The position numbers were made by a program, and so were the translations under genes. From Perna viridis (Eukaryota): a stretch of 64,000 nucleotides of DNA. Each line of letters starts with the position of its first letter. Position 1 is the first letter of the stretch. The notes beneath the pieces are model-generated. The model searched no databases. It was not told where the DNA came from and saw only the letters and a program-made list of their open reading frames with translations. Location of the stretch: positions 682,001 to 746,000 of the forward strand of contig CM074518.1 of the NCBI GenBank assembly GCA_037379345.1, read 5' to 3'. Shown one piece after another: positions 1-34,995 of this stretch.

Positions 1-660
1 TTTGTTCTCAGCTTGATTGATCGCTATGGAAACCTGAATATAAACATTGGAGGCAATAGCAAACATGAAGTGGCAGTTGATGGGAAAGGCTTTATAGCTG
101 CTTATTTAAGGGCTTTTTTAAGTACAATAGACTTAAACACAGACTTTAATGTCCAATTTAACCTGTCAACATGTATCCCAAAGGTAAGCAAACCTAATGA
201 GGACAACATCTACATTTTTAGTTTTCTTTACTTCTTTGGATTTATTTTTGTTGTCATGCAGGCATATGGTCTACGGTTGAGATGCAAAATTGCAACATTT
301 TTTTATCCAGAAAGAGATGAAGAGAGAAACAAGTTCCTCCAAGAAAAGATCTGTCTCAAGAGAAAATCTTATTTTAGTTGGATGAGACAACACATACTCT
401 CAAGGAATAAACAATTTCATATTGAAAATAGAATCACTATTCGTGGCTGGCTTCAATATAAATATCCTGTCTATGCCCGATTCTTCAGCTTTTGCCTTCC
501 AACAAAAAAGCAGTGCCTGAACTGTGATGTGGACTATGATGGAAAAAAAAGATTTTCAGTCTGTCCTGTCTGTAATTCAAACTACTGTGAGGAATGCTTT
601 ATTCATGAAATGAAAAATAACTGTGTTGTATGTGATACTAGGAATAAATCAAGAAAATAG
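1..660 (+). CDS. DCST-like gene A, 3' part of terminal coding exon (DC-STAMP domain protein, DCST1/2-sneaky-SPE-42 family); gene begins upstream of the window
   Basis: Open frame from base 1 to TAG at 658-660. It encodes the last TM helix (IYIFSFLYFFGFIFVVM), the family motif AYGLRLRxKIAxFFYPERxxER and a C-terminal CxxC-x12-CxxC-x4-CxxC-x9-CxxC (C4C4 RING-like) domain. About 86% aa identical (30 differences in 214 aa, hand count) to 17888-18547. Confidence 0.93.
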   Translation, partial: FVLSLIDRYGNLNINIGGNSKHEVAVDGKGFIAAYLRAFLSTIDLNTDFNVQFNLSTCIPKVSKPNEDNIYIFSFLYFFGFIFVVMQAYGLRLRCKIATFFYPERDEERNKFLQEKICLKRKSYFSWMRQHILSRNKQFHIENRITIRGWLQYKYPVYARFFSFCLPTKKQCLNCDVDYDGKKRFSVCPVCNSNYCEECFIHEMKNNCVVCDTRNKSRK

Positions 661-14251: not shown

Positions 14252-15202
14252 ATGTACAAGGTTTCTTTTTCCTATAATGCTGATGCAAAGACAGATATCA
14301 ATCTTAAAGTTGGAGACATAATCACACAAGTAGAAGATGTTGGAAATGGTTGGTCATTGGGGTATAATGCATCATCAGGTAAAACAGGAACCTTCCCAAC
14401 AGAATTTATTATAAAAAAGGAATCGTTCAAAAACAAAATCAAAAGACTCTCACTGGCAAAGAGATCTTCAGACAAGATTAAACAGTCTCCAGTCAAGGCC
14501 AGTGAGGGGACCTTAATCCCCAGGGAGAAGGCAAAGATACCTGACAACATTCTCCACAGAAGACTTACATATCATTCTGGCAATAAGCAGGTAATAAGTG
14601 TAAAACTTCCAAATTCTATTATAAGACCAATTAAAACAGCCCAACATACCATACTTAGAAGTAGTCTTAGGAAGAAAAAAATCCTGAATAGTTTCTTTGG
14701 TTTTGTTGGCGGATTAATTGCTAGTGGAATTCTGTATGTTCTCCTGCGATACAGTTATGACTATTCTATAGAGACATCAGGCTGGCTTACCTTAGGATTT
14801 TCTGTCCCTATTTGTGTAGGGATGACACTATCTACACATATGCGTTGCATCATACTTTTAATGGTGCCAAATTTATTTACTGGAAAAGGCAGGACTGTCC
14901 TTATGTCAATTATTTTTGCCAAACTTTTAGCTGGGCCTGTTGTCAATATTGCATATAATGCTCAACAAGCATCTGAATCTATGGCATGTGCCCAGGAGCT
15001 AATTTACAACCAAACTCATCAACTCAAAAGACAACTAGAGGGGCCAATGCGCAGAATTGAAAAAACTATATACAATGGACTTGTGAAAGTTAGGGATGTA
15101 GCTCAAGGTATCAAGGACTTTATTCAGCCAGTATTGAAGGTCATAGACAGCTTCACAAGTGGGTTGGAAAAAGCTGGAAATGCCCTTAAAACAGCAGCTG
15201 AT
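14252..15202 (+). CDS. DCST-like gene B, coding exon 1: SH3 domain, basic linker, N-terminal TM segments, start of ectodomain
   Basis: Acceptor TTCCAACAG| at 14244, then GCCATG. SH3 signature YKVSFSYNADAKTDINLKVGDII..GNGWSLG..GKTGTFPTEFI. DCST motifs RCIILLMVPNLFTGKGR and GPVVNIAYN..ESMAC. Donor GAT|GTAAGT, phase 0. Confidence 0.9.
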
Positions 15203-16258
15203 GTAAGTCATATCATGTTTGATCCATAGTATTTAACTAGAAATATTGCGAGCAAGCTCTCAAAAGAAACCACTCACTTCAAACAGAGTTATGTAAAAAT
15301 TGTAAGTTCAGGCATGATGATTTTATGGATTTTTGGCATAAATCTATCTAAGGAAACTTAGCTTTTTTCCTGTCATCTTCTCACTTCATTCAGTTTCATC
15401 CTACCTGCATTTTGCATACATTTTATTAATCTTTTTTTTTTTTTTCTTTTTTTTTTTTTTTTTGACATTTGAGTATATAAATTTCTCTTTTGATATTAAC
15501 TGACACAGTGCATGAGTACTTTGATAAGAATGTGCCTTATCACATACAGTGTCCAATCCAACTTTTTGCATCTTTAGGTAGATTTTTGCCCCATCTCATT
15601 GACCATTTATATCTATAGGTAGTTTTTTGCCCACTCCCACAAACCCTTGAAGGTAAGTTTTGTATCAGGGCAATCCCAAGGACTTCCCACATGTTTTTTT
15701 TCTTTAGAAAATTTGACTGGAGTATAACACTAGTGCTTATTAATTTTCAAATTTTTGTATGGCTATTTTTCATCCTACTGAAAGGTTCTCAGAATGAAAC
15801 CCATATTGTAAACAAGCTTAATACAACCAAGGAGGTTAAATCTGTGGGGACAGGTATGGCTACAGCATTAAAACTTGATACAACTTGGACTTTCCAAAAA
15901 TGGAAAATGATCTTGTTGTCAGGACCTTTCACTGAAAGGTGTGTTTACACTTGGTAAATACCTTTTTGTTTCTAGTGTTGTTTTGTTTTGTCTTACTTTA
16001 AACATAATTTATTTATTATTATTATTTTTTTTTTTTTGGGGGGGGGGGGGTATTTCCTTAAACATTTGGAGCCAAAACTTCCAAAATATATCCCAACTGT
16101 CCTTTTATGTGGTGGATACAATTTCATAGATATCTATTTTCTCATATTTCTCTATTTTGTACAACTGCAATTCATTTTATAAAAAGATGTTTTCAAAAGG
16201 ACTCTTTATTTTCTTATTGTTACCATTATTGTTTATAGCCCAAACTTTATCTTATCAG

Positions 16259-16875
16259 AAATGTTCAAGTGGAGTTCAGTATGCCAAATCTAAGTGTGTG
16301 GATGGTATCAATGGAGCTAAAAGTGCCTGTGAGAGAGAACTCAGAAAAATTGATCCCACTAATAAAATCATTAACTTTAGTAAAGATACCTCAAACAAGG
16401 TTGTTGGATTTGGTAAAGATGCCAAGGGTAAAATTGTTGATTTTGGTAAAAGTATTGGAGATGGCATCAAAGGATTTTTTGGAAAAAAGAGAAAAAAAAG
16501 AGGAGCCATGATTGAGCAGGAAAAGGCAGCAATTGCATCAGCAAAGCAACTTATTGGTAGGGTAGAGAGTAGAAAACAACAGAAGATTAGAATGAACCCA
16601 TCAAACCAAGAAACATTCCTTACAAAGATTTCCCTGGACAAACCATCAACTAATGGAAATAACAATCTTGTAGAAAGCACACACTTTCCAAAACTGAACT
16701 TAAAAAATATATCTCATCAAAGCTTAATCCATAAAACAAGTCTGACAAGACAACTCCAATCAACAACAAGAAATCTAAGAACACCACTCGAACCAACAAG
16801 CAGTCTTACACTATCAGTCCAATCAACAAGCAGTCTGAAAACACCACTAAAACTGGCAATACATTCAATACAAAG
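16259..16875 (+). CDS. DCST-like gene B, coding exon 2 (Cys-rich ectodomain with large insertion)
   Basis: Acceptor CTTATCAG| (phase 0). KCSSGVQYAKSKCVDGINGAKSACE aligns with gene C exon 2 ECDKVIGKVYRKCVNGINDAYTKCKE. Donor AAG|GTAAAT (phase 2) joins the next exon in frame. Confidence 0.82.
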
Positions 16876-17262
16876 GTAAATCATATTTGATGTATTCTTT
16901 TTTTTTTTTTTTTGCACAAGATCATTGTCACAATAATTTATTGGTTGAAACTTGACCAAAATTAATGTGGTAACAAAAAGTTACCTGATACTTATAGGTA
17001 TTCATGGGTATCAAATAATCAATCATATCACAAACAATAATCAATGATACCATTGATTTATTTCAATCCAAACACAATCCAATTTTCATCTCAGTTCTTC
17101 AATTTTCTCAATGTTAGCGCGAAAGTATAGTTCAACTTTAGTTTTCCAATAGTTAATTTTCCTTTTCTTAAAACTTATAGCCCTTTTCTTCCATTAATTA
17201 AAAGCTGTATCTATTTTATCAGTTAGATTTTCTATAATTATCTATACTATTTTATATTTCAG

Positions 17263-18547
17263 ATATAAGCGGTTAAGTCTGCTAGACAAAATCTGTATTG
17301 CCTTAGACATTAGTGCTATATGTCAAGTCGTACAGTTGGGAGAATATGTAGTCTGTACACCTTTAAAATTCTTCTCCGACCTGATTGGCCTGACTACCAA
17401 TGGTATAAAGAAAGCCGTCTCCTCTGTGACTAACTTTTTTTACTTTGATTTTGATGGCAATTTTGATTCAACAGGAGACATCTCCTCATCAAAAACTGCA
17501 AAACAAATAGTATCAGAGGTGAAAGCAGACATTTTGTCTAAATTGGCAAAGTTTTCTGAAGCTGCAAGTATATTTGGGTATATAATGAGTTTAGCATTGT
17601 TAATACTATTCAGTAAGTCAGCTATATACCTACGGAAATTCTTGAGCAAGGACCGTTATGACAATTTCTACATAACTACTTCATTTAAGCAATATGACCT
17701 TGAATGTAGGGTAAATGGCAACAGCTCAGTTCTGCCTCTAAAAAGAGGAGAAAGGAGCAAGTATGTAGACACAAGGTCTCTCTTTCTGGTGTCTAAAGAG
17801 ATTGCTCACTTTAAACAGGGGTTTGGGAAGGTATTAATTCATCTCCTTATTGCAGCAGTAATCATCGTCTTTGATTACACCTTGTACTTTGTTCTCAGCT
17901 TGATTGATCGCTATGGAAACCTGAATATAAACATTGGAGGCAATAGCAAACTTGATGTATCAGTTGATGGGAGTGGGTTTATAGCTGCTTTCTTGAGGGC
18001 TTTTCTAAGCACAATAGACTTAAACTCAGATTTCGGTGTTGAATTTAACCTTACAGTATGTATTCCAAAGGTAAGCAAACCTAATGAGGACAACATCTTC
18101 ATTTTTAGTTTCCTTTATTTCTTTGGATTTGTTTTTGTTGTCATGCAGGCATATGGCTTAAGATTAAGACGCAAAATTGCAACATTTTTCTTTCCAGAAA
18201 GAGATGAAGAGAGAAACAAGTTCCTCCATGACAAGATCTGTATCAAAAGAAAATCATTTTTTGGTTGGATGAGACAACATATACTCTCTCGAAACAAACA
18301 ATTTCATATTGAAAATAGAATCACTATTCGTGGCTGGCTTCAATATAAATATCCTGTCCTTGCCCAATTCTGTAGCATTTGCCTTCTGACCAAAAAACAA
18401 TGCTTGAACTGTGACATGGACTATGATAAAAAAATAAGATTCTCAGTCTGTCCTGTCTGTAATTCAAACTACTGTGAGGAATGCTTTATTCATGAAATGA
18501 AAAATAATTGTCTTGTGTGTGATACTAGGAATAAATTCCAAAAATAG
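17263..18547 (+). CDS. DCST-like gene B, terminal coding exon (DC-STAMP domain, TM helices, C4C4 RING); whole protein 950 aa
   Basis: Acceptor ATTTCAG|A, in frame with the 17336 ORF. Motifs YLRKFLSKDRYDNFYIT, VLPLKRGER, AYGLRLRRKIATFFFPERDEER and a C4C4 RING. TAG at 18545-18547. Confidence 0.95.
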
Positions 18548-19585: not shown

Positions 19586-21600
19586 ATAACATTACTACAT
19601 TTGTACAATTAAAGGATTATAAAAAAGAACTGATCAAACCTGAAACCATTATGCCCTTTTGGTTTGATGCTACATTTGTACAGTTAAAGGATTATAAAAA
19701 AGAACTGGTCAAACCTGAAACCATAATGCCCTTTTGGTTTGATGCTACATTTGTACAATTAAAGGATTATAAAAAAAAGAACTGGTCAAACCTGAAACCA
19801 TAATGCCCTTTTGGTTTGATGGTATTTACTATAACATCACTACATTTGTACAATTAAAGGATTATAAAAAAAAGAACTGGTCAAACCTGAAACCATAAAG
19901 CCCTTGTGGTTTGATGGTATTTACTATAACATTACTACATTTGTACAATTAAAGGATTATAAAAAAGAACTTGTCAAACCTGAAACCATAATGCCCTTGT
20001 GGTTTGATGATATTTACTATAACACTACATTTGTACAATTAAAGGATTATAAAAAAGAACTGGTCAAACCTGAAACCAAAATGCCCTTTTGGTTTGATGC
20101 TACATTTGTACAATTAAAGGATTATAAAAAAGAACTGGTCAAACCTGAAACCATAATGCCCTTGTGGTTTAATGGTATTTACTATAACATTACTACATTT
20201 GTACAATTAAAGGATTATAAAAAAGAACTGGTCAAACCTGAAACCATTATGCCCTTTTGGTTTGATGCTACATTTGTACAGTTAAAGGATTATAAAAAAG
20301 AACTGGTCAAACCTGAAACCATAATGCCTTTTTGGTTTGATGCTACATTTGTACAATTAAAGGATTATAAAAAAAAGAACTGGTCAAACCTGAAACCATA
20401 ATGCCCTTTTGGTTTGATGGTATTTACTATAACATCACTACATTTGTACAATTAAAGGATTATAAAAAAGAACTGGTCAAACCTGAAACCATAAAGCCCT
20501 TGTGGTTTGATGGTATTTACTATAACATTACTACATTTGTACAATTAAAGGATTATAAAAAAGAACTGGTCAAACCTGAAACCATAATGCCCTTGTGGTT
20601 TGATGGTATTTACTATAACACTACATTTGTACAATTAAAGGATTATAAAAAAGAACTGGTCAAACCTGAAACCAAAATGCCCTTTTGGTTTGATGCTACA
20701 TTTGTACAATTAAAGGATTATAAAAAAGAACTGGTCAAACCTGAAACCATAATGCCCTTGTGGTTTGATGGTATTTACTATAACATTACTACATTTGTAC
20801 AATTAAAGGATTATAAAAAAGAACTGGTCAAACCTGAAACCATAATGCCCTTGTGGTTTGATGGTATTTACTATAACACTACATTTGTACAATTAAAGGA
20901 TTATAAAAAAGAACTGGTCAAACCTGAAACCATTATGCCCTTTTGGTTTGATGCTACATTTGTACAGTTAAAGGATTATAAAAAAGAACTGGTCAAACCT
21001 GAAACCATAATGCCCTTTTGGTTTGATGCTACATTTGTACAATTAAAGGATTATAAAAAAAAGAACTGGTCAAACCTGAAACTATAATGCCCTTTTGGTT
21101 TGATGGTATTTACTATAACACTATATTTGTACAATTAAAGGATTATAAAAAAGAACTGGTCAAACCTGAAACCATTATGCCCTTTTGGTTTGATGCTACA
21201 TTTGTACAGTTAAAGGATTATGAAAAAGAACTGGTCAAACCTGAAACCATAATGCCCTTTTGGTTTGATGCTACATTTGTACAATTAAAGGATTATAAAA
21301 AAAGAACTGGTCAAACCTGAAACCACAATGCCATTTTGGTTTGATGGTATTTACTATAACATCACTACATTTGTACAATTAAAGGATTATAAAAAAGAAC
21401 TGGTCAAACCTGAAACCATAATGCCCTTGTGGTTTGATGGTATTTACTATAACATTACTACATTTGTACAATTAAAGGATTATAAACAAGAACTGGTCAA
21501 ACCTGAAACCATAATGCCCTTTTGGTTTGATGCTACATTTGTACAATTAAAGGATTATAAACAAGAACTGGTCAAACCTGAAACCATAATGCCCTTTTGA
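19586..21600. repeat. Composite minisatellite, 24 units of 75/90/93 bp
   Basis: Core CTACATTTGTACAATTAAAGGATTATAAAAAAGAACTGGTCAAACCTGAAACCATAATGCCCTTTTGGTTTGATG, with or without GTATTTACTATAACA(TTA). Units are highly homogeneous. Confidence 0.97.
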
Positions 21601-24595: not shown

Positions 24596-26600
24596 GTAAG
24601 ATATGAATATTTATAAATCTACCAGAGAGCAATCTTGGCTCAGACTTATATAAAAGATCACAGATAAGATATGTGCATCTTTAATGCCATTCAAGAAAAG
24701 TTCACGCTCAAATTGTACACCACAGGTAAGATATGAGTATCTTTCATGTCATTCGAGAACAGTCTTCGCTCAAATTGTAGACCACAGGTAAGATATGAAT
24801 ATCTTTCATGTCATTCGAAAACTGTCTTCACTCATATTGTAGACCACAGGTAAGATATGAGTATCTTTCATTGTCATTCGAGAACAGTCTTCGCTCATAT
24901 TGTAGACCACAGGTAAGATATGAGTATCTTTCATGTCATTCGAGAACAGTCTTCACTCGTATTGTAGACCACAGGTAAGATATGAGTATCTTTCATTGTC
25001 ATTCGAGAACAGTCTTCGCTCATATTGTAGACCACAGGTAAGATATGAGTATCTTTCATGTCATTCAAGAACAGTCTTCACTCATATTGTAGACCACAGG
25101 TAAGATATGAGTATCTTTCATGTCATTCGAGAACAGTCTTCACTCAGATTGTAGACCACAGGTAAGATATGAGTTTCTTTCATGCCATTCATCTACAGTC
25201 TTCACTCAGACTGTAGACCACAGGTAAGATATGAGTATCTTTCATGCCATTCGACCAGAGAGCAATCTTGGCGCAGACTATAGACCACAAGTTAGATATG
25301 AGTAATAATCACTCCACCAGAGAACAACCTTGGCTCAGAATAAAGACCACAGTAAGACATGAGTATCTTTCATACCATTCGACCAGAGAGCAATCTGGGC
25401 GCAGACTATAGACCACAAGTTACATATGAGTATTAATCATTCTACCAGAGAACAATCTTGGCTAAGACTATAGACCACAGTAAGATATGAGAATCTTTCA
25501 TGCCATTCAAGAACAGTCTTGGCTCAGACTGTAGACCACAGATCAGATATCAGTGTCTTTCATGCCATCTGGAACAACCTTGGTTCAGACTTTGTTTGGA
25601 AGAGAACAAATTTAGATTATAGACCAGAGGTAAGATAAAGAGTATTTATCATTCCATCTGAGAACAATCTTGGTACTGATTGGAAATTGTTGCTAAAACA
25701 TGAGACTGAGAACAATAAGGCTCAAACTATAGACCACTAATAAGATATGAGTATTTATCATTCAATCTTAGATCAACCTTTGCTCTTACTGTAAACTGTT
25801 GGTAAGATAAAAGTATTTATCATTCCATCTCAGAACAATTTGACTCAAACTGTAGACTACTGGTAAGATAAAAGTATTTATCATTCCATCTCATAACAAT
25901 TTGACTCAAACTGTAGACTACTGGTAAGATAAAAGTATTTATCATTCCATCTCAGAACAATTTGACTCAAACTGTAGACTACTGGTAAGATAAAAGTATT
26001 TATCATTCCATCTCATAACAATTTGACTCAAACTGTAGACTACTGGTAAGATATGAGTATTATCATTCCACCTGAAAATAATTATGGCTATGACTGTAAA
26101 CTGCTGGTAAGATGTGAGTATTATCATTCCATCTCAGAACAATTTGACTCAAACTGTAGACTACTGGTAAGATATGAGTATTATCATTCCACCTGAAAAT
26201 AATCATGGCTATGACTGTAAACTGCTGGTAAGATGTGAGTATTATCATTCCATCTGAGAATGATCATGGCTATGACTGTAAACTGCTGGTAAGATGTATT
26301 ATCATTCCACCTGAGAATAATCATGGCTATGACTGTAAACTGCTGGTAAGATGTGAGCATTATCATTCCATCTGAGAATAATCATAGCTTTGATTGTAAA
26401 CTGCTGGTAAGATGGGAGTATTATAATTCCACCTGAGAATAATCATGGCTATGACTGTAAACTGCTGGTAAGATGTGAGCATTATCATTCCTTCTGAGAA
26501 TAATCATAGCTTTGATTGTAAACTGCTGGTAAGATGGGAGTATTATCATTCCATCTGAGAATAATCATGGCTATGACTAAAATGCTGATAAGATGGTAAG
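24582..26600. repeat. ~60-63 bp minisatellite with gradually changing subfamilies
   Basis: TGTAGACCACAGGTAAGATATGAGTATCTTTCATGTCATTCGAGAACAGTCTTCACTCATAT units grade into CTACTGGTAAGATAAAAG and CTGCTGGTAAGATG variants. Confidence 0.95.
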
Positions 26601-27224
26601 ACTATAAACCAATGTGCAACTAAGATTACTTTTTATCAATGCTTGTTGCCATATTAGTTGCTTTTGGTTAGTACCCCTTAATGTTTAGCTTAATTGTCCA
26701 TTAAATACATCTCAGTCAATGAATCTGATTTTATCAGCTATTTCTTTGTTCTTCAATTGTTTTGTGTGATATTTATTTTGGCAGGCTACTGTTGTGATAC
26801 TAAAATTAACGGCAATATCAAATGACATCATTATGTCAAATCAATTGTGACATTACCGATATACAGATTAATGTCAGTTATGAATGTTTCAAAAGAAAAA
26901 AAACATCTCAACCTATCTGAACTCAATGTGATATTTTCTGTCTCTATTTCAAATTGCTGTTTCTCTGTATGTAAATGCATTATTCATTTGCATGAAAAAC
27001 TTCACTGAAAGCCATCAATACAAAAACAAATACTAGCCAAATCAAATCCATTAGTATGTGATAACACAACATTTGACCTAGCTCCCAAAGGTCACACTGG
27101 GTCCTTCTAGTAGAAGAGCTCTTTCAGTCTGACAAGGGTTACTCTGCTAGATTAATCCATTGATTGTTTTTCAATGCAACTTAGGTCACCACATCATGGC
27201 AAGATCATTTAATGCTATTCTAGA

Positions 27225-27790
27225 AAAGCTCTCTTAGCATAGCAAGGACATTATAAGAGGTTACTCAACTAGATGAGCTCTCTTAGCATGGCAAGGACAT
27301 TATAAGAGGTTACTCAACTAGATGAGCTCTCTTAGCATGGCAAGGACATTATAAGAGGTTACTCAACTAGATGAGCTCTCTTAGCATGGCATGGGCATTA
27401 TGAATAGATTACTCCACTAGATGAGCTCTCTTAGCATGGCAGGGCATTATGAATAGGTTACTCCACTAAATGAGCTCTCTTAGCATGGCATGGGCATTAT
27501 GAATAGGTTACTCCACTAAATGAGCTCTCTTAGCATGGCAGGGGCATTATGAATAGGTTACTCCACTAAATGAGCTCTCTTAGCATGGCAGGGCATTATG
27601 AATAGGTTACTCCACTAAATGAGCTCTCTTAGCATGGCAGGGCATTATGAATAGGTTACTCCACTAAATGAGCTCTCTTAGCATGGCATGGGCATTATGA
27701 ATAGGTTACACAACTAGATGAGCTCTGTCAACATGGCAGAGGAATTAAATAAACAAATTGGGTTACTCAACTAGAAGAGTTCTCCCAGCC
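27225..27790. repeat. 49 bp minisatellite x~11
   Basis: GAGCTCTCTTAGCATGGCAGGGCATTATGAATAGGTTACTCCACTAAAT units. Confidence 0.95.
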
Positions 27791-27836: not shown

Positions 27837-28544
27837 ATGTTCATTATGACTACAATGGAAGGTGAAGATGAATCTGATGTTTTTGAGCAAGTTAACAAGG
27901 TTGAAGGTGAAGGGGAACCTCATGTATTTGAGCAGAGATACAAGGGAGCAAATATTGAAAAGAAGAATCCAGGAGTTACATTTGCCAACATGTTATTTAA
28001 AAGTGATCGTCATACATTCACTTGTCTGAAAGCTGTTTTTGGGATATTTGGTGGTATTTTTGCTGGCGGTATCCTGTTTGTTATCCTTGTATACAGTTTT
28101 AACTATCCTTACAATCTTGCTGGTTATATTTGCTGTGGATTTACTTTTCTAGCTTGCCTTTTACTTGCCATTTCTGTTCATGTCAGATGTATCATGGTTC
28201 TTACTATACCAAGTTTGTTCACAAGTCGAGGAAGAGTAGCCATATTAGCCTTGATATTTGGATTACTTTTGTCAAGACCAATACGAAATATCTCCAACAA
28301 CATGTCAGAAGTTTCTCGCAGCATGGCATGTAGCACAGAGCTGTTCCATAATCAGACTTACTCCCTCCGACAACAACTGGAAATACCTATTGAAAAGATT
28401 AAGGCTGCCTTGCAAAGTCAGGGAGAGGACATCAAAAAGATAGGTGATACTATAGAAGAGGCTATTGAACCTATATACAAGGCTCTTGAGGCAGTGAAAC
28501 ACCATGTAAAAGAGGTCAGTGGAGCTCTGGACTATGCATCTAAG
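27837..28544 (+). CDS. DCST-like gene C, coding exon 1 (no SH3; short acidic N-terminus, TM segments)
   Basis: Acceptor TTTTCAG|ATG. FGIFGGIFAGGILF, RCIMVLTIPSLFTSRGR and SMACSTELFHNQT are homologous to gene B exon 1. Donor AAG|GTATCA is phase 0 at the homologous position. The exact start Met is uncertain (27837, 27846 or 27855). Confidence 0.9.
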
Positions 28545-28907
28545 GTATCATATGTTTAGTTGTAAGAGTTGGAAGACATTATTGCTTGAATGAAAGACAG
28601 CAACCATATTGATTATTTTTTAACAAAACTTTAATCACTAATTAAAGACTGGTACAAAAACTGGCATCAAACCTGTATCAAATTATTTACAATGTGTTCA
28701 CAGTAATATCCTCTGATCCTTTCATCAGTTTTGTTTAAGTCATAGCCAGTCTTCTAAAACCTCAGTTTAATTCATTGTTAAGTTTATGTAGCTTTTCATC
28801 AGTTACATATTGTTCATCATTTAGAAACAAAGTTGATTTGAGAAATATAATGGGATAATGATCTTGTTAGGTTAATATTGATAAGAATAACTTTACTTTG
28901 ACTTTAG

Positions 28908-29005
28908 GAATGTGACAAAGTAATTGGAAAAGTGTACAGAAAATGTGTTAATGGTATCAATGATGCATACACAAAATGCAAAGAAACATTAAAAAATGTA
29001 GCAAG
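28908..29005 (+). CDS. DCST-like gene C, coding exon 2 (98 nt; absent from the ORF track)
   Basis: ACTTTAG|GAA TGT..GCA AG|GTAAGT. Encodes ECDKVIGKVYRKCVNGINDAYTKCKETLKNVA(R). Phases 0/2 fit both neighbours. Confidence 0.88.
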
Positions 29006-29064
29006 GTAAGTGAGGTATTATTATAAACAGGCTAAAATGTTTTGTAATGTTGTAATAATGAAAG

Positions 29065-30200
29065 AGTTCTGTCATTTACAGTAATGGTAATTCTGTCATT
29101 TATAGTGATGTCACTTCTGTAGTTTACAATGTTGTCAGTACTGTAACTTACAGTGATGTCACTTCTGTTATTTACAGTGATGTTACTTCTGTAGTTTAAA
29201 CTGTTGTAGTACTGTAACTTACAGTGATGTCACTTCTGTTATTTACAGTGATGTCACTTCTGTCATTTACAGTGATGTCACTTCTGTAGTTTACACTGTT
29301 TTCAGTACTGTAACTTGCAGTGATGTCACTTCTGTTATTTACAGTGATGTCACTTCTGTAGTTTACACTGTTTTCAGTACTGTAACTTACAGGGATGTCA
29401 TTTCTGTTATTTACAGTGATGTCACTTCTGTAGTTTACACTGTTTCCAGTACTGTAACTTACAGTGATGTCACTTCTGTAGTTTACACTGTTGTCAGTAC
29501 TGTAACTTACAGTGATGTCAGTTATATCATTTGTAGTTTACAGTGATTTCAGTACTGTTATTTATAGTGATGTCACAGAACAGTGATGTCACTTCCATTA
29601 TTTACAGTGATGTCACTTCCGTAGTTTACACTGTTGTCAGTACTGTAACTTACAGTGATGTCAGTTATATCATTTGTAGATTACAGTGATTTCAGTACTG
29701 TAATTTATAGTGATGTCACAGAACTATCATTTACAGTGATGTCACAGAACTATCATTTACAGTGATGTTAATTCTATAATTTACAGTGTTGTAAGTTCTG
29801 TCTTAAGAGTGATGTCAGTTGTTCCATTTGCTATTATGTCAGTTCTTTCATTAACAGTGATGTCAGTTCTGATATTTTCTGTGATGATAGTTCTGCCATT
29901 TACAGTGATATTACTTCTGCTTTTTACAATGACTCATAGTTCTGTCATACACAGAGATAACACACAACTACCATTTACACAGATGTCAGTTCTGTCATTG
30001 ACAGTTGTGTCAATTCTGTCATTTACATTAATGGCAATTCTGTCATTTACAGTGATGTCAGTTTTGTCATTCACACTGATATCTGTTCTGTCATTCACAC
30101 CAATATCAGTTCTGTCATTCACACTGATATCAGTTCTGTTGTTTTCAATGACTCGCAGTTCTTTCATAATAGTGATGTCACAAACTTTCATTTACAGTGA
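29065..30200. repeat. 24 bp minisatellite (intronic)
   Basis: TTTACAGTGATGTCACTTCTGTCA-like units with higher-order variants. Confidence 0.92.
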
Positions 30201-31522: not shown

Positions 31523-32597
31523 CAGAGAAACCTGTCTAAATAGAACCCTGAATCATCCAACAACCTGTCTAAACAGAACCCTGAATCATCCAATGACCTG
31601 TCTAAATAGAACCATGAATCATCCAATAACCTGTCCAAACAGAATCATGAATCATCCAATAACCTGTCTAAATAGAAACATGAATCATCCAATGACCTGT
31701 CTAAAGAGAACCATGAATCGTCCAATGACCTGTCTAAACAGAACCATGAATCATCCAATGACCTGTCTAAACATAACCCTGAATTGCCCAATAACCTGTC
31801 TAAACAGAATCATGAACCATCCAATAACATGTCTAAATAGAACCCTGAATCATCCAATGACCTGTCTAAACAGAACCATGAATCATCCAATGACCTGTCT
31901 AAACAAAATTATGAATCATCCAATAACCAGTCTAAACAGAACCATGAATCATCTAATAACATGTCTAAACAGAGCCCTGAATCATCCAATAACCTGTCTA
32001 AACTGAACCCTGAATCATCCAATAACCTGTCTAAACAAGACTATTGAGAGTCCCTTTATATCAGTTTATTAATTAATTAATTAATTTGTTAATTAATTTT
32101 GACCCTGGATAAACCAAAACCATTTGAAGATCCAAAAGGTCTTCAGTTTAGGAACATGTTTCACTGCAAAGGTCCAAAAGGGGTTCAGTTTACATATGTT
32201 TCACTGTAAAGGTCCAAAAAGGGATTCTGTTTAGAAATGTTTTACTGTAAAGGGCCAAAAGGGGTTCAATTTAAACATGTTGAACTTCGGAGGTCAAAAA
32301 GGGGTTCTGTTTAGAAATGTTTTACAGTAAAGGACCAAAAGGGGTTCAGTTTAAACATGTTTTACTGTAAAGGACCAAAAGGGGTTCAGTTTAAACATGT
32401 TTTACTGTAAAGGATCAAAAGGGGTTCAGTTTAGACATGTTAAATTTCAGAGGTCCAAAAGGGGTTCTGTTTAGAAATGTTTTACTGTAAAGGGTCAAAA
32501 GGGGTTCAGTTTAAACATGTTTTACTGTTAAGGTCCAAAAGAGTTCAGTTTAGACATGTTTTATTGTAAAGGTCCAAAAGGGGTTCAGTTTAGACAG
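31523..32597. mobile_element. Tc1/pogo-type MITE remnant whose ends are amplified into 33 bp (~15x) and 40 bp (~11x) tandem arrays
   Basis: The left end TA|CAGAGAAACCTGTCTAAATAGAACCC is the near reverse complement of GGGTTCAGTTTAGACATGTTTTACTG|TA in the right array. Confidence 0.65.
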
Positions 32598-32707
32598 GCA
32601 CACTTATTTCTATGGTCAATTAAATCTTTGGTTTGATGAAAAATATAAAACTGATCATTGACTATCCTTATTCAAAGAGGTCCTGATATTATTTGATCTG
32701 ATTTCAG

Positions 32708-33944
32708 ATATGTTCCAAATTTTGATGATGTACTTTGCCAAACACTTACCATTGATGAAGTCTGTAGAGTGGTCAGCACAAATATCCTGTGTTCTCCAGT
32801 CAAGGTATTGGATCAAGCTGCTGAAAACATTGCTCAACACTTGATTAACCTTGTCAATCAAATCAAAAAATGGTTTAAGTTTGAGATCACTAATAAATCT
32901 ACAGCTGACAAAGTTTACAATGCATCTAAAACAGCCAAGGAACTTATACAAGAAGTAGGCACAGCACTGACCGAAAGGAAGGGCACCTTCACAATAGCAG
33001 TTGATATTTTCAACAAATGTTTGGCACTTTCTCTCATTCTACTTCTCATCCAGGCAGTATTTTACTTAAAGAACTACTTAGCAAAAAATGAATACGACAA
33101 CATCTATATTACCTCCAAGTTTAAAGAGTATGATTCAGCATGTAAAGAGAGAAACGAGCAAACCGTTCTTCCTCTCCGTAAAAAGGAACGAAGGACATAC
33201 ATCAATACCATACTACCAAGAATGTCATCACGTGAGCTCAGAGAAATGGAGATGGGTACTGTCCTGCTCCTACTGCACATGCTTCTAGCTGCACTGATCA
33301 TATTTATTAACTATGTGTTTTACTATATCTTGTACCTTGTTAATAGATATGGTAAGGTCAACGTAGAGGTCACTGGAGAAAGTAAAATCAACCTCAGAGT
33401 CAAAGGTGGTACTATGGCAGATTTCATAAACCTGTTCATTAAAAACATAAATATTGAAAATACATATGAAGCTAGCTACAACACAACACTCTGTCTTCCA
33501 GATCCGACAGCACCTGGCATTGATGATATCCCTGTCCTCTGTGGGGCTTATTTCACTGCGTTTATGTTTGTCATAATGCAAGCTTATGGGAAAAGACTGA
33601 ATAGAAAGATATGTGCTTTTTACTATCCAGAACAAGAGCAAGATCGCATAACTTTCTTGCATAAAAAAATGCTCTATAACAGAAAGCAAGAACACATGTT
33701 CATAAAGCAACATGTAAAGTCTCTACAATTTCAAAAGCAGGCAGAAAAAAGAATGTCGCTTAAAAACATTATACGTCCATGGTCCAAAGGTGTGGTAAAT
33801 GATAATTTCTGTATGAAATGTGGGGAAGATCAAAACTCAACTAATTCAATGAATGCATGTAAGCACCAAACATGTAAAGCAACATATTGCAAAGACTGTT
33901 ATACTGATTTTGGACAGACATGTCCTATTTGCAGAAAATATTAG
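32708..33944 (+). CDS. DCST-like gene C, terminal coding exon (DC-STAMP domain, C4C4 RING); whole protein ~680 aa
   Basis: Acceptor ATTTCAG|A (phase 2). Motifs YLKNYLAKNEYDNIYIT, VLPLRKKER, AYGKRLNRKICAFYYPEQEQDRI and CMKC..CKHQTC..YCKDC..CPIC. TAG at 33942-33944; AATAAA at 33955-33960. Confidence 0.95.
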
Positions 33945-34084
33945 AAAACTAAGCAATAAAATGTCATATGTAAGGAGAACACTTATCTGTACTAAACTAC
34001 TGGCTTTTGTTTTTGTTGAATAGCAAAATTCATGGCAACCAATTACTCAAAGCATGAATGCACCTTTTATCATAACAAAAAAAG

Positions 34085-34995
34085 TTTCAACCATAACCCC
34101 CTTTACCATTGCAATGAAAAGCTTCAACCATAACCCCTTTTATCATGAAAATGAAAAGCTTCAACCATAACCCCCTTTATCATTGCAATGAAAAGCTTCA
34201 ACCAACACCCCTTTTACCATGGCAATGAAAAGCTTCAACCAATACCCCCTTTCCCATTGCAATGAAAAGCTTCAACCAATACCCCCTTTACCATGGCAAT
34301 GGAAAGCTTCAACCATTACCCCCTTTACCATGGCAATGAAAAGCTTCAACCATTACCCCCTTTACCATTGCAATGAAAAGCTTTAACCAACACCTCCTTT
34401 ATCATGAAAATGAAAAGCTTCAACCAATACCCCCTTTATCATGGCAATGAAAAGCTTGAACCATTACCCCCTTTACCATGGCAATGGAAAGCTTCAACCA
34501 ACATCCATTGCAATGAGAAGCTTCAACCAATACCCCCTTTACCATTGCAATGAAAAGCTTCAACCATTACCCCCTTTACCATGGCAATGGAAAGCTTCAA
34601 TCATTACCCCCTTTACCATTGCAATGAAAAGCTTCAACCAATACCCCCTTTACCATGGCAATGAATAGCTTCAACCAACACCCCCTTTACCATTGCAATG
34701 AAAAGCTTCAACCAACACCCCCTTTATCATGAAAATGAAAGCTTCAACCAATACCCCCTTTATCATGGCAATGAAAAGCTTGAACCATTACCCCCTTTAC
34801 CATGGCAATGGAAAGCTTCAACCAACATCCATTGCAATGAGAAGCTTCAACCAATACCCCCTTTACCATTGCAATGAAAAGCTTCAACCAATACCCCCTT
34901 TACCATTGCAATGAAAAGCTTCAACCATTACCCCCTTTACCAAGGCAATGAATAGCTTCAACCAATACTCCTTTACCATGGCAATGAAAAACTTT
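34085..34995. repeat. 37 bp minisatellite (~24 units) downstream of gene C
   Basis: GCAATGAAAAGCTTCAACCAATACCCCCTTTACCATG units, with an internal higher-order duplication. Confidence 0.95.

Follow-up and report, generated by a model that had tools for sequence, protein, structure and literature searches.

In this study, we analysed a 64,000-nucleotide stretch of the Perna viridis genome (the window, to which positions refer unless another locus is named) and found that a short amphipathic segment on its + strand belongs to a 950-aa membrane protein of the DC-STAMP/DCST family, in which it opens a 192-residue loop between ectodomain Cys3 and Cys4. Along this loop follow the helix, a Gly, the polybasic sequence KKRKKR, a 124-aa spacer and RYKR across the exon 2/3 junction, an insert that we refer to as the cassette. 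We consider the protein to be a DC-STAMP-family member whose amphipathic tip is likely covered by a furin-removable cap. An earlier note on this DNA had described 11-mer repeats ending in FFG and a basic cluster and had suggested a tethered, possibly amidated membrane-inserting helix after cleavage; it named neither the DC-STAMP/DCST host nor the second furin-type site, nor did it place the segment at the predicted tip of the stalk. We found the feature to be real and conserved and the repeat to be incidental, and the helix is no free peptide.

It has long been asked whether DC-STAMP/DCST proteins themselves fuse membranes, and the present SPARK model (2026 preprint) relies on a predicted hydrophobic stalk tip that partner proteins have to free of its shield. 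In the protein described here, the position of the SPARK tip is apparently taken by an amphipathic helix with two furin-type sites as its gate, and a cassette-less paralogue next door provides a natural control for engagement of the tip with membranes.

Gene structure, protein plan and family position

The 950-aa open reading frame is intact and results from three + strand ORFs joined at 15202/16259 and 16875/17263 across GT..AG introns; unjoined, these ORFs carry an SH3 domain, no known domain and the full DC_STAMP domain, respectively. Contigs of run X1 span both introns (with the exon 1 donor given by the joint 15202>16259), and run X18, from another study, has the same spliced letters at the joint ends. 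The splicing evidence consists of such contig joints, with no sequencing run recorded as RNA. The features of the gene are as follows.

14252..15202, + strand: exon 1, with the N-terminal SH3 domain, three predicted TM helices and the start of the ectodomain stalk (start codon placed by comparison with the Mytilus relative)
14264..14401, + strand: SH3 domain PF00018, predicted cytosolic (E 7.5e-07, over the curated cut-off)
14690..14953, + strand: predicted TM segments 1-3 (aa 147-165, 187-205, 216-234), from hydropathy peaks
15203..16258, + strand: intron 1, GT..AG, phase 0, from contig joints
16259..16875, + strand: exon 2, with the distal stalk, Cys319/330/341 (11-residue spacing) and the entire insert
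16364..16483, + strand: amphipathic Gly/Lys-rich helix (aa 353-392) ending in FFG; three decayed 33-bp units and a terminal stretch
16484..16501, + strand: polybasic site 1 of furin type, KKRKKR (aa 393-398), with a Gly before it; canonical R-X-K-R
16502..16873, + strand: spacer of 124 aa between sites 1 and 2, predicted to be excised
16874..17272, + strand: site 2 of furin type, RYKR (aa 523-526), with intron 2 interrupting the first codon
16876-17262, + strand: intron 2, splitting the first codon of furin-type site 2
17263..18547, + strand: exon 3, with Cys534/543/554, the stalk return helices, TM segments 4-6 and the C-terminal Cys-rich domain
17657..18229, + strand: DC_STAMP domain PF07782 (E 4e-49, profile positions 1-191 of 191)
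18371..18520, + strand: eight-Cys RING-like C-terminal region (aa 893-942), from its Cys pattern

Six hydropathy peaks, six ectodomain cysteines (319, 330, 341; 534, 543, 554) and eight C-terminal cysteines together follow the DC-STAMP/DCST plan, and six helices are predicted to span the membrane, a large ectodomain following the N-terminal ones; the region of TM segments 1-3 is helical in an AlphaFold2 model of a Mytilus relative. Close relatives carry PF26037 (zf-RING_DCST1_C) at the C-terminus, and a local copy of Pfam gave no match for the RING-like region of the 950-aa protein itself. Among relatives with a name, those from Mytilus come closest (59% over exon 3), followed by those of scallop and pearl oyster. 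The letters of the segment at 16364-16501, which are coding and lie in exon 2, are identical in the covering contigs of X2, X5, X10, X12, X15 and X18 (the covering contig of X3 being left out), and this identity across several studies rules out an assembly artefact. In exon 3, at window positions 17485-18009, contigs of X2, X3 and X12 differ from the window at dozens of positions, a single contig of 2 kb having up to 67 differences; allelic divergence, gene conversion or the mis-joining of a paralogue could each account for this.

For OC-STAMP, both termini are described as lying inside and an N-glycan as being used in the loop after the N-terminal membrane helices (PMC4456411). By analogy, the loop of the 950-aa protein is predicted to be luminal; a sequon at a seemingly matching place is retained in 55 of 81 aligned relatives. 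For the Mytilus relative P0002, AlphaFold2 (mean pLDDT 76.6, alignment of 91 rows) gives one unbroken helix over residues 213-348, a low-confidence insert and return helices from 443. The insert has a pLDDT <50 for most of its length, and the cassette helix, which few rows of this alignment cover, is itself below 50 and almost non-helical in the model. In the cassette-less paralogue P0166, the corresponding helix ends at 253 and turns at the hydrophobic VPFLDL. From this secondary-structure output, rather than from coordinates, the Cys3-Cys4 loop is predicted to be the membrane-distal tip of the stalk. A complex prediction of the cassette-bearing P0162 (205-750) with the cassette-less P0166 (102-553), both from Mytilus californianus, was run without alignments and scored 0.01, a value that speaks neither for nor against pairing.

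We placed the protein by FastTree (151 rows, 8 short matches dropped) and by IQ-TREE in quick mode (LG+G4, 49 chosen rows, midpoint root only). Both trees resolve three groups, namely DCST1 (IQ-TREE SH-aLRT support 100), which holds the axolotl and Lingula proteins so named, DCST2 (96), with fish, locust and acorn-worm proteins, and a third clade (95) of molluscs, a brachiopod, an annelid and echinoderms, into which the 950-aa protein falls. Orthology to DCST1/2 is ruled out by this placement. The genome has five intron-poor genes of the third clade and separate intron-rich loci whose best matches lie in the DCST1 and DCST2 clades (G000:C7:37.55 Mb with L006 and L011, and C3:22.77 Mb with L007-L010, respectively); these two lie on different contigs, in contrast to the adjacent pair in mouse. 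Noda et al. state that invertebrates have solely DCST1/2 (PMC8989947). The third invertebrate clade, as reconstructed here from protein sequences, contradicts this statement. No vertebrate DC-STAMP/OC-STAMP was identified among the best 150 of 748 relatives, 30 of which were looked up by name, and the third clade may be the missing counterpart of DC-STAMP/OC-STAMP. The combination of SH3 and DC_STAMP domains is already visible in automatic annotation, since the ESM Atlas holds a mostly molluscan cluster of this architecture with 80 members. In the PDB, the search by sequence returned matches to SH3 domains only, and the search by fold returned none at E<=0.001 for the family.

The segment and the cassette among relatives

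We could confirm that 16364-16501 encodes exactly the peptide read by the earlier note, ending in FFG-KKRKKR, and that its predicted helix is amphipathic. Scanned over angles, the hydrophobic moment of the 40 aa is highest at 100 degrees, with 0.48 (0.46 at 98 degrees), a value reached by 0.015% of 20,000 shuffles (p 1.5e-4), so that the amphipathicity of the segment exceeds chance; over the last 18 aa the moment rises to 0.62. Windows of the stalk at residues 280-307 are more amphipathic still, with a moment of up to 0.65. Hydrophobicity is moderate, at 0.41 for the last 18 aa and -0.13 to 0.26 for earlier windows. The 33-bp repeat is real but decayed, and weaker than the word repeat implies: among units 1-3, 18-20 of 33 bases and 4-5 of 11 residues agree, and lag-33 identity is 0.53 (p 0.006 allowing any lag from 9 to 60), but the fourth unit proposed by the earlier note shares just 11-14 of 33 bases, and Tandem Repeats Finder did not report the 33-bp repeat at score 30. 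The first unit carries an N-F-S sequon and could be glycosylated. As the stalk cysteines are also 11 residues apart, the period of the segment may merely continue the coiled-coil register. Taken alone, the segment gave no meaningful match in the PDB (best E 0.84), Pfam or the ESM Atlas (0.76 or less), and a search of the genome for a donor gene of the cassette matched only three paralogues (3 candidates scored).

In the ectodomain of the 950-aa protein, R-X-K/R-R motifs occur at sites 1 and 2 only. No such motif lies upstream of the helix, which bears out the expectation that the helix would stay tethered after cleavage. The spacer begins with a short helix that is kept in mytilids and continues as a fast-evolving, Ser/Thr-rich (24%) stretch with one sequon.

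We surveyed the tip loop in the best 150 of 748 relatives at E<=0.001, 65 of which have no usable Cys triple, being fragments or having shortened stalks. A Cys3-Cys4 loop of <=20 residues is found in 73, DCST1/2 included; these loops comprise 9-19 aa, have a mean hydrophobicity of 0.88 over their last eight residues and contain R-X-K/R-R in none of the 73 cases. The remaining 12 loops are longer and divide into 8 molluscan cassettes, in named proteins with loops of 50-104 aa holding R-X-K/R-R-type sites, 2 loops mis-called because Cys4 was missed and 2 that are long but carry no site. The background frequency of R-X-K/R-R is 4 matches in 7,252 stalk residues.

Nineteen cassette proteins were scored, from Mytilus, three scallops, Pinctada, Haliotis, Lottia, Patella and the Perna viridis genome including two paralogues; a furin-type site after the helix was their defining criterion, they are interrelated so that counts are not independent, and oysters, cephalopods and other phyla are thinly sampled, as word-based protein searches gave no more than 7, 7 and 3 close relatives. 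Within this set, the helix followed by a polybasic site, mostly with Gly between them, is conserved. The helix is significantly amphipathic (shuffle p<0.01) in 15 and not in the other 4, and F or W stands among its last five residues in 17. The Gly before the basic run, which the earlier note had read as an amidation signal, is present in 13 and absent in 6, and amidation consequently cannot be required family-wide. Helix length ranges from 10 to 48 aa and net charge from -12 to +4, with 6 of the 19 at +2 or more and strongly acidic helices in scallops and pearl oyster, so that the Lys-rich, cationic character of the segment does not extend to the family. A Pro lies between helix and stalk in most cassette proteins. 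Seventeen of the proteins could be scored for a second site, which is canonical in 13 and a weaker basic one in 4; L012, on account of its exon 2 donor, and the truncated P0164 were left out of this scoring.

The 11-mer periodicity, too, is not shared by relatives. In the two closest paralogues the helix is exactly 18 residues (five turns) shorter and has no repeat, and the 33-bp repeat is private to the gene of the 950-aa protein. Helical phase is kept within 60 degrees in five of six length changes among mytilids and scallops (18, 3, 7, 11 and 3 residues; not 16), with 35% expected (p 0.02). Since indels keep the phase and the repeat is private, it is the hydrophobic face rather than the repeat that appears to be selected. 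Mytilid helices share only 10-14 of 22-34 aligned positions. Spacers vary in length between ~12 and at least 367 aa; mytilids have kept 11-18 of the 22 or so residues with which the spacer opens, and spacers have no evident common sequence between mollusc orders.

The cassette is missing from many members of the third clade, including the neighbouring paralogue and heterodont clams, and is therefore dispensable for the clade. Its distribution requires 3 changes on the tree, a count that fits gain and loss equally; since non-molluscan members have no cassette, the simplest reading is one gain before the gastropod/bivalve split, followed by two losses. Several relatives deviate in their architecture. 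The Mytilus proteins P0163 and P0164 have two tandem N-terminal SH3 domains. A set of clam and freshwater-mussel proteins (P0011, P0012, P0015, P0016, P0019, P0020 and P0035; three are named, from Potamilus, Dreissena and Mercenaria) has a shortened stalk end, a different Cys spacing and no cassette, and the Owenia member and its kin apparently are without the Cys region. P0053 (Haliotis) and P0025 (Pinctada) have odd tip loops with Gly and just two basic residues, which may reflect decay of a cassette or errors in the gene models.

A proposed protease-primed tip and its alternatives

We propose that the two-site insert is a protease-primed switch, in which furin would excise the spacer and thereby expose a tethered, membrane-binding amphipathic helix. 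Reading this from sequence, we regard the proposal as evenly poised between right and wrong. Furin-type convertases would very probably cut at site 1 in the secretory path and less probably at site 2, which has Leu at P1' in the 950-aa protein; furin disfavours Leu at this position, and cleavage of site 2 would be weakened by it. Both halves would remain anchored with three membrane helices each and would probably be linked by the six ectodomain cysteines. Trimming by a carboxypeptidase, together with PAM where Gly is present, could then yield an aromatic, possibly amidated C-terminus, a step that we hold to be rather doubtful. In the last step, to which we assign somewhat less than an even chance, the helix may lie on or insert into the apposed or its own membrane and aid cell-cell fusion, replacing the short hydrophobic tip of ordinary DCST1/2; the fusing cells would probably be somatic, such as haemocytes. 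The genome encodes proprotein-convertase P domains and copper monooxygenase domains, both families being broader than furin and PAM. The hydrophobicity of the helix, which is below that of canonical tip loops, fits binding to the membrane surface better than insertion, and the unconserved charge and the four helices that are not significantly amphipathic speak against the proposal, as do the almost non-helical model of the cassette helix, the N-F-S sequon in the first unit and the absence of the cassette from many members of the clade.

Among the closest known systems by descent are DCST1/DCST2 (Sneaky, together with SPE-42 and SPE-49; SPARK sperm fusion factors), which share with the 950-aa protein the DC_STAMP domain, six predicted membrane helices, the long helical six-Cys stalk and the C-terminal RING-like region. 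Unlike them, the 950-aa protein adds the N-terminal SH3 domain and sits in a separate clade (SH-aLRT 95), and the short hydrophobic tip loop of DCST1/2 is replaced in cassette proteins by an insert of 50-190+ aa with two furin-type sites. A DCST1/2 dimer of 260 angstrom is described as a prediction in PMC11052572. In the SPARK preprint of 2026, the DCST1/2 stalk is proposed to expose a hydrophobic tip that inserts into the egg membrane and is shielded by TMEM81 until activation (PMC13192892). In contrast to this partner-based shield, that of the cassette proteins would be a removable part of the same chain, so that the cassette would provide the tip together with its shield. That DCST proteins are fusogens is not proven: when DCST1/2 and IZUMO1 are expressed in HEK293T cells, these are reported to bind eggs with no fusion (PMC8989947). 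A contig named 'DCST2', its paralogue unspecified, is reported as raised 3.2-fold in myticin-treated mussel haemocytes (PMC7023338), which weakly suggests a somatic role. That the molluscan proteins of the third clade are true protease-primed fusogens, with a mucin-like cap excised, a tethered amidated helix and a function in haemocyte or gamete fusion, goes further than the switch itself, and we consider it unlikely. If it held true, no DC-STAMP-family protein before it would have had an on-switch of its own, and the switch would be convergent with the priming of viral class I proteins. No report of convertase processing in the DC-STAMP/DCST family was found in the literature searched, with subscription papers mostly outside it; the words 'furin' and 'amphipathic' are absent from the main text of the SPARK preprint (PMC13192892), as is 'cleav' from the text of PMC8989947 and PMC8055269 and the main text of PMC4456411.

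DC-STAMP and OC-STAMP, which act in osteoclast and giant-cell fusion and are likewise close by descent, belong to the same domain family and are likewise described with six helices, inside termini and a glycosylated loop after the N-terminal helices (PMC4456411). To class I viral fusion proteins, above all RSV F, the likeness is one of priming logic only: a spacer is cut out at two furin sites, disulfides presumably keep the halves together and a membrane-active element is exposed at the tip of a stalk. However, a viral fusion peptide is a new N-terminus, whereas the candidate helix would be a new C-terminus, and the 950-aa protein, unlike viral class I proteins, is polytopic. No match pointing to viral homology or a viral fold was found in the PDB at E<=0.001 or, with a cassette-less model, in BFVD. 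Myticalins A/B, the precursors of amidated linear antimicrobial peptides of mussels, share Gly and a basic convertase site followed by a C-terminal extension, but the cassette helix has no signal peptide, is unreleased and inconsistently cationic and lies within a 950-aa membrane protein. With the 11-mer lipid-binding repeats of synucleins, perilipins, apolipoproteins and LEA group 3 proteins, the segment shares the 11-residue period, a Lys/Gly-rich composition and a high helical moment; it differs in having only about 3.6 units, which are unconserved in paralogues, and in being extracellular. Homology to synuclein or perilipin is ruled out, with no match in Pfam, the PDB or the ESM Atlas.

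The main rival to a lipid-binding tip retains the proposed cleavage and lets the exposed helix bind protein, either by prolonging the stalk's 11-residue coiled coil along a partner subunit or by serving as a ligand, tethered and perhaps amidated, for a receptor on another cell. We rate it as unlikely in itself, yet as the alternative to be taken most seriously, given the unconserved charge, the moderate hydrophobicity and the 11-residue register of the stalk. DCST1/2 are reported to form complexes (PMC8989947), the amphipathicity of stalk windows equals or exceeds that of the segment, phase-preserving indels would suit a protein-facing helix equally well, and the range of charges, with acidic helices among them, is ill suited to anionic lipid. 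Helix length and sequence are, on the other hand, rather loose for a specific interface, and the Pro parts the helix from the stalk in most members. The high Gly content, moreover, disfavours a stable coiled coil. Clearly less probable is that what acts is the cut as such or the spacer that it sets free, with the helix a passive part of a pro-region, so that the stalk would be loosened or matured, a mucin-like cap shed or a bioactive peptide freed. Virokinin is an amidated peptide that offers a comparison for the last of these forms. It is the released spacer of bovine RSV F, freed from between two furin sites (PMC7552771). The two sites of one paralogue flank a spacer of at least 367 aa with 42% Ser/Thr, the first 22 spacer residues are kept in mytilids as described above, and the scallop paralogue P0009 retains both sites with its helix reduced to a 10-residue non-amphipathic stub; against this stands that spacers are unlike between mollusc orders and that an amphipathic helix with an aromatic end is kept in most cassette proteins.

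A free antimicrobial peptide is ruled out, since the protein starts with an SH3 domain, lacks a signal peptide and has no R-X-K/R-R upstream of the helix. A cryptic antimicrobial or lytic peptide with myticalin-like processing by convertase, carboxypeptidase and PAM, displayed on the cell or freed by a further cut, would agree with a cationic (+4), amphipathic segment with a Gly-basic end, with the convertase route predicted, not validated, for Mytilus myticalins (PMC12294457) and with the 'DCST2' contig raised in myticin-treated haemocytes (PMC7023338). We nevertheless hold it to be very improbable, as few of the helices reach a net charge of +2, no canonical upstream site or signal peptide would free the helix and the motif is confined to three paralogues genome-wide. 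Marginally less credible still is that the insert goes uncleaved and is tolerated as a lengthening of exon 2 in an exposed loop, with the repeat a product of neutral slippage. Loss of the insert in at least two lineages (within the 3 tree changes) and the privacy of the repeat to one paralogue would agree with this, but polybasic sites stand at both ends of the insert from gastropods to bivalves, as opposed to none of the 73 short loops, such sites are rare in the stalk background, and indels preserve helical phase.

Neighbouring loci

The gene lies among tandem relatives. A neighbouring DC-STAMP paralogue of the third clade at ~27840-28545, 28908-29006 and ~32706-33944 (+ strand) has the same intron positions, no cassette and a short hydrophobic tip loop, and a second pair of a cassette-bearing and a cassette-less gene is found at about 2.03-2.05 Mb of G000:C8. 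Upstream, a further tandem paralogue (L012:3290-9999 and window 1-660, + strand) carries the mucin-like spacer array mentioned above.

Satellite arrays occupy 19595-21599, 24655-26594, 27220-27747, 29065-30139, 31529-32037, 32127-32596 and 34080-34994, with periods of 75/90, 62, 61, 49, 24, 33, 40 and 37 bp. Several of them give long open frames, including a 33-bp array in intron 2 of the neighbouring gene, and these frames are probably non-coding. Broken pieces of reverse-transcriptase-like retroelements, judged by eye from their translations, lie between and inside the paralogues (L012:3-2316, L014:2590-5277, L015:5104-6398 and L016:8184-8729).
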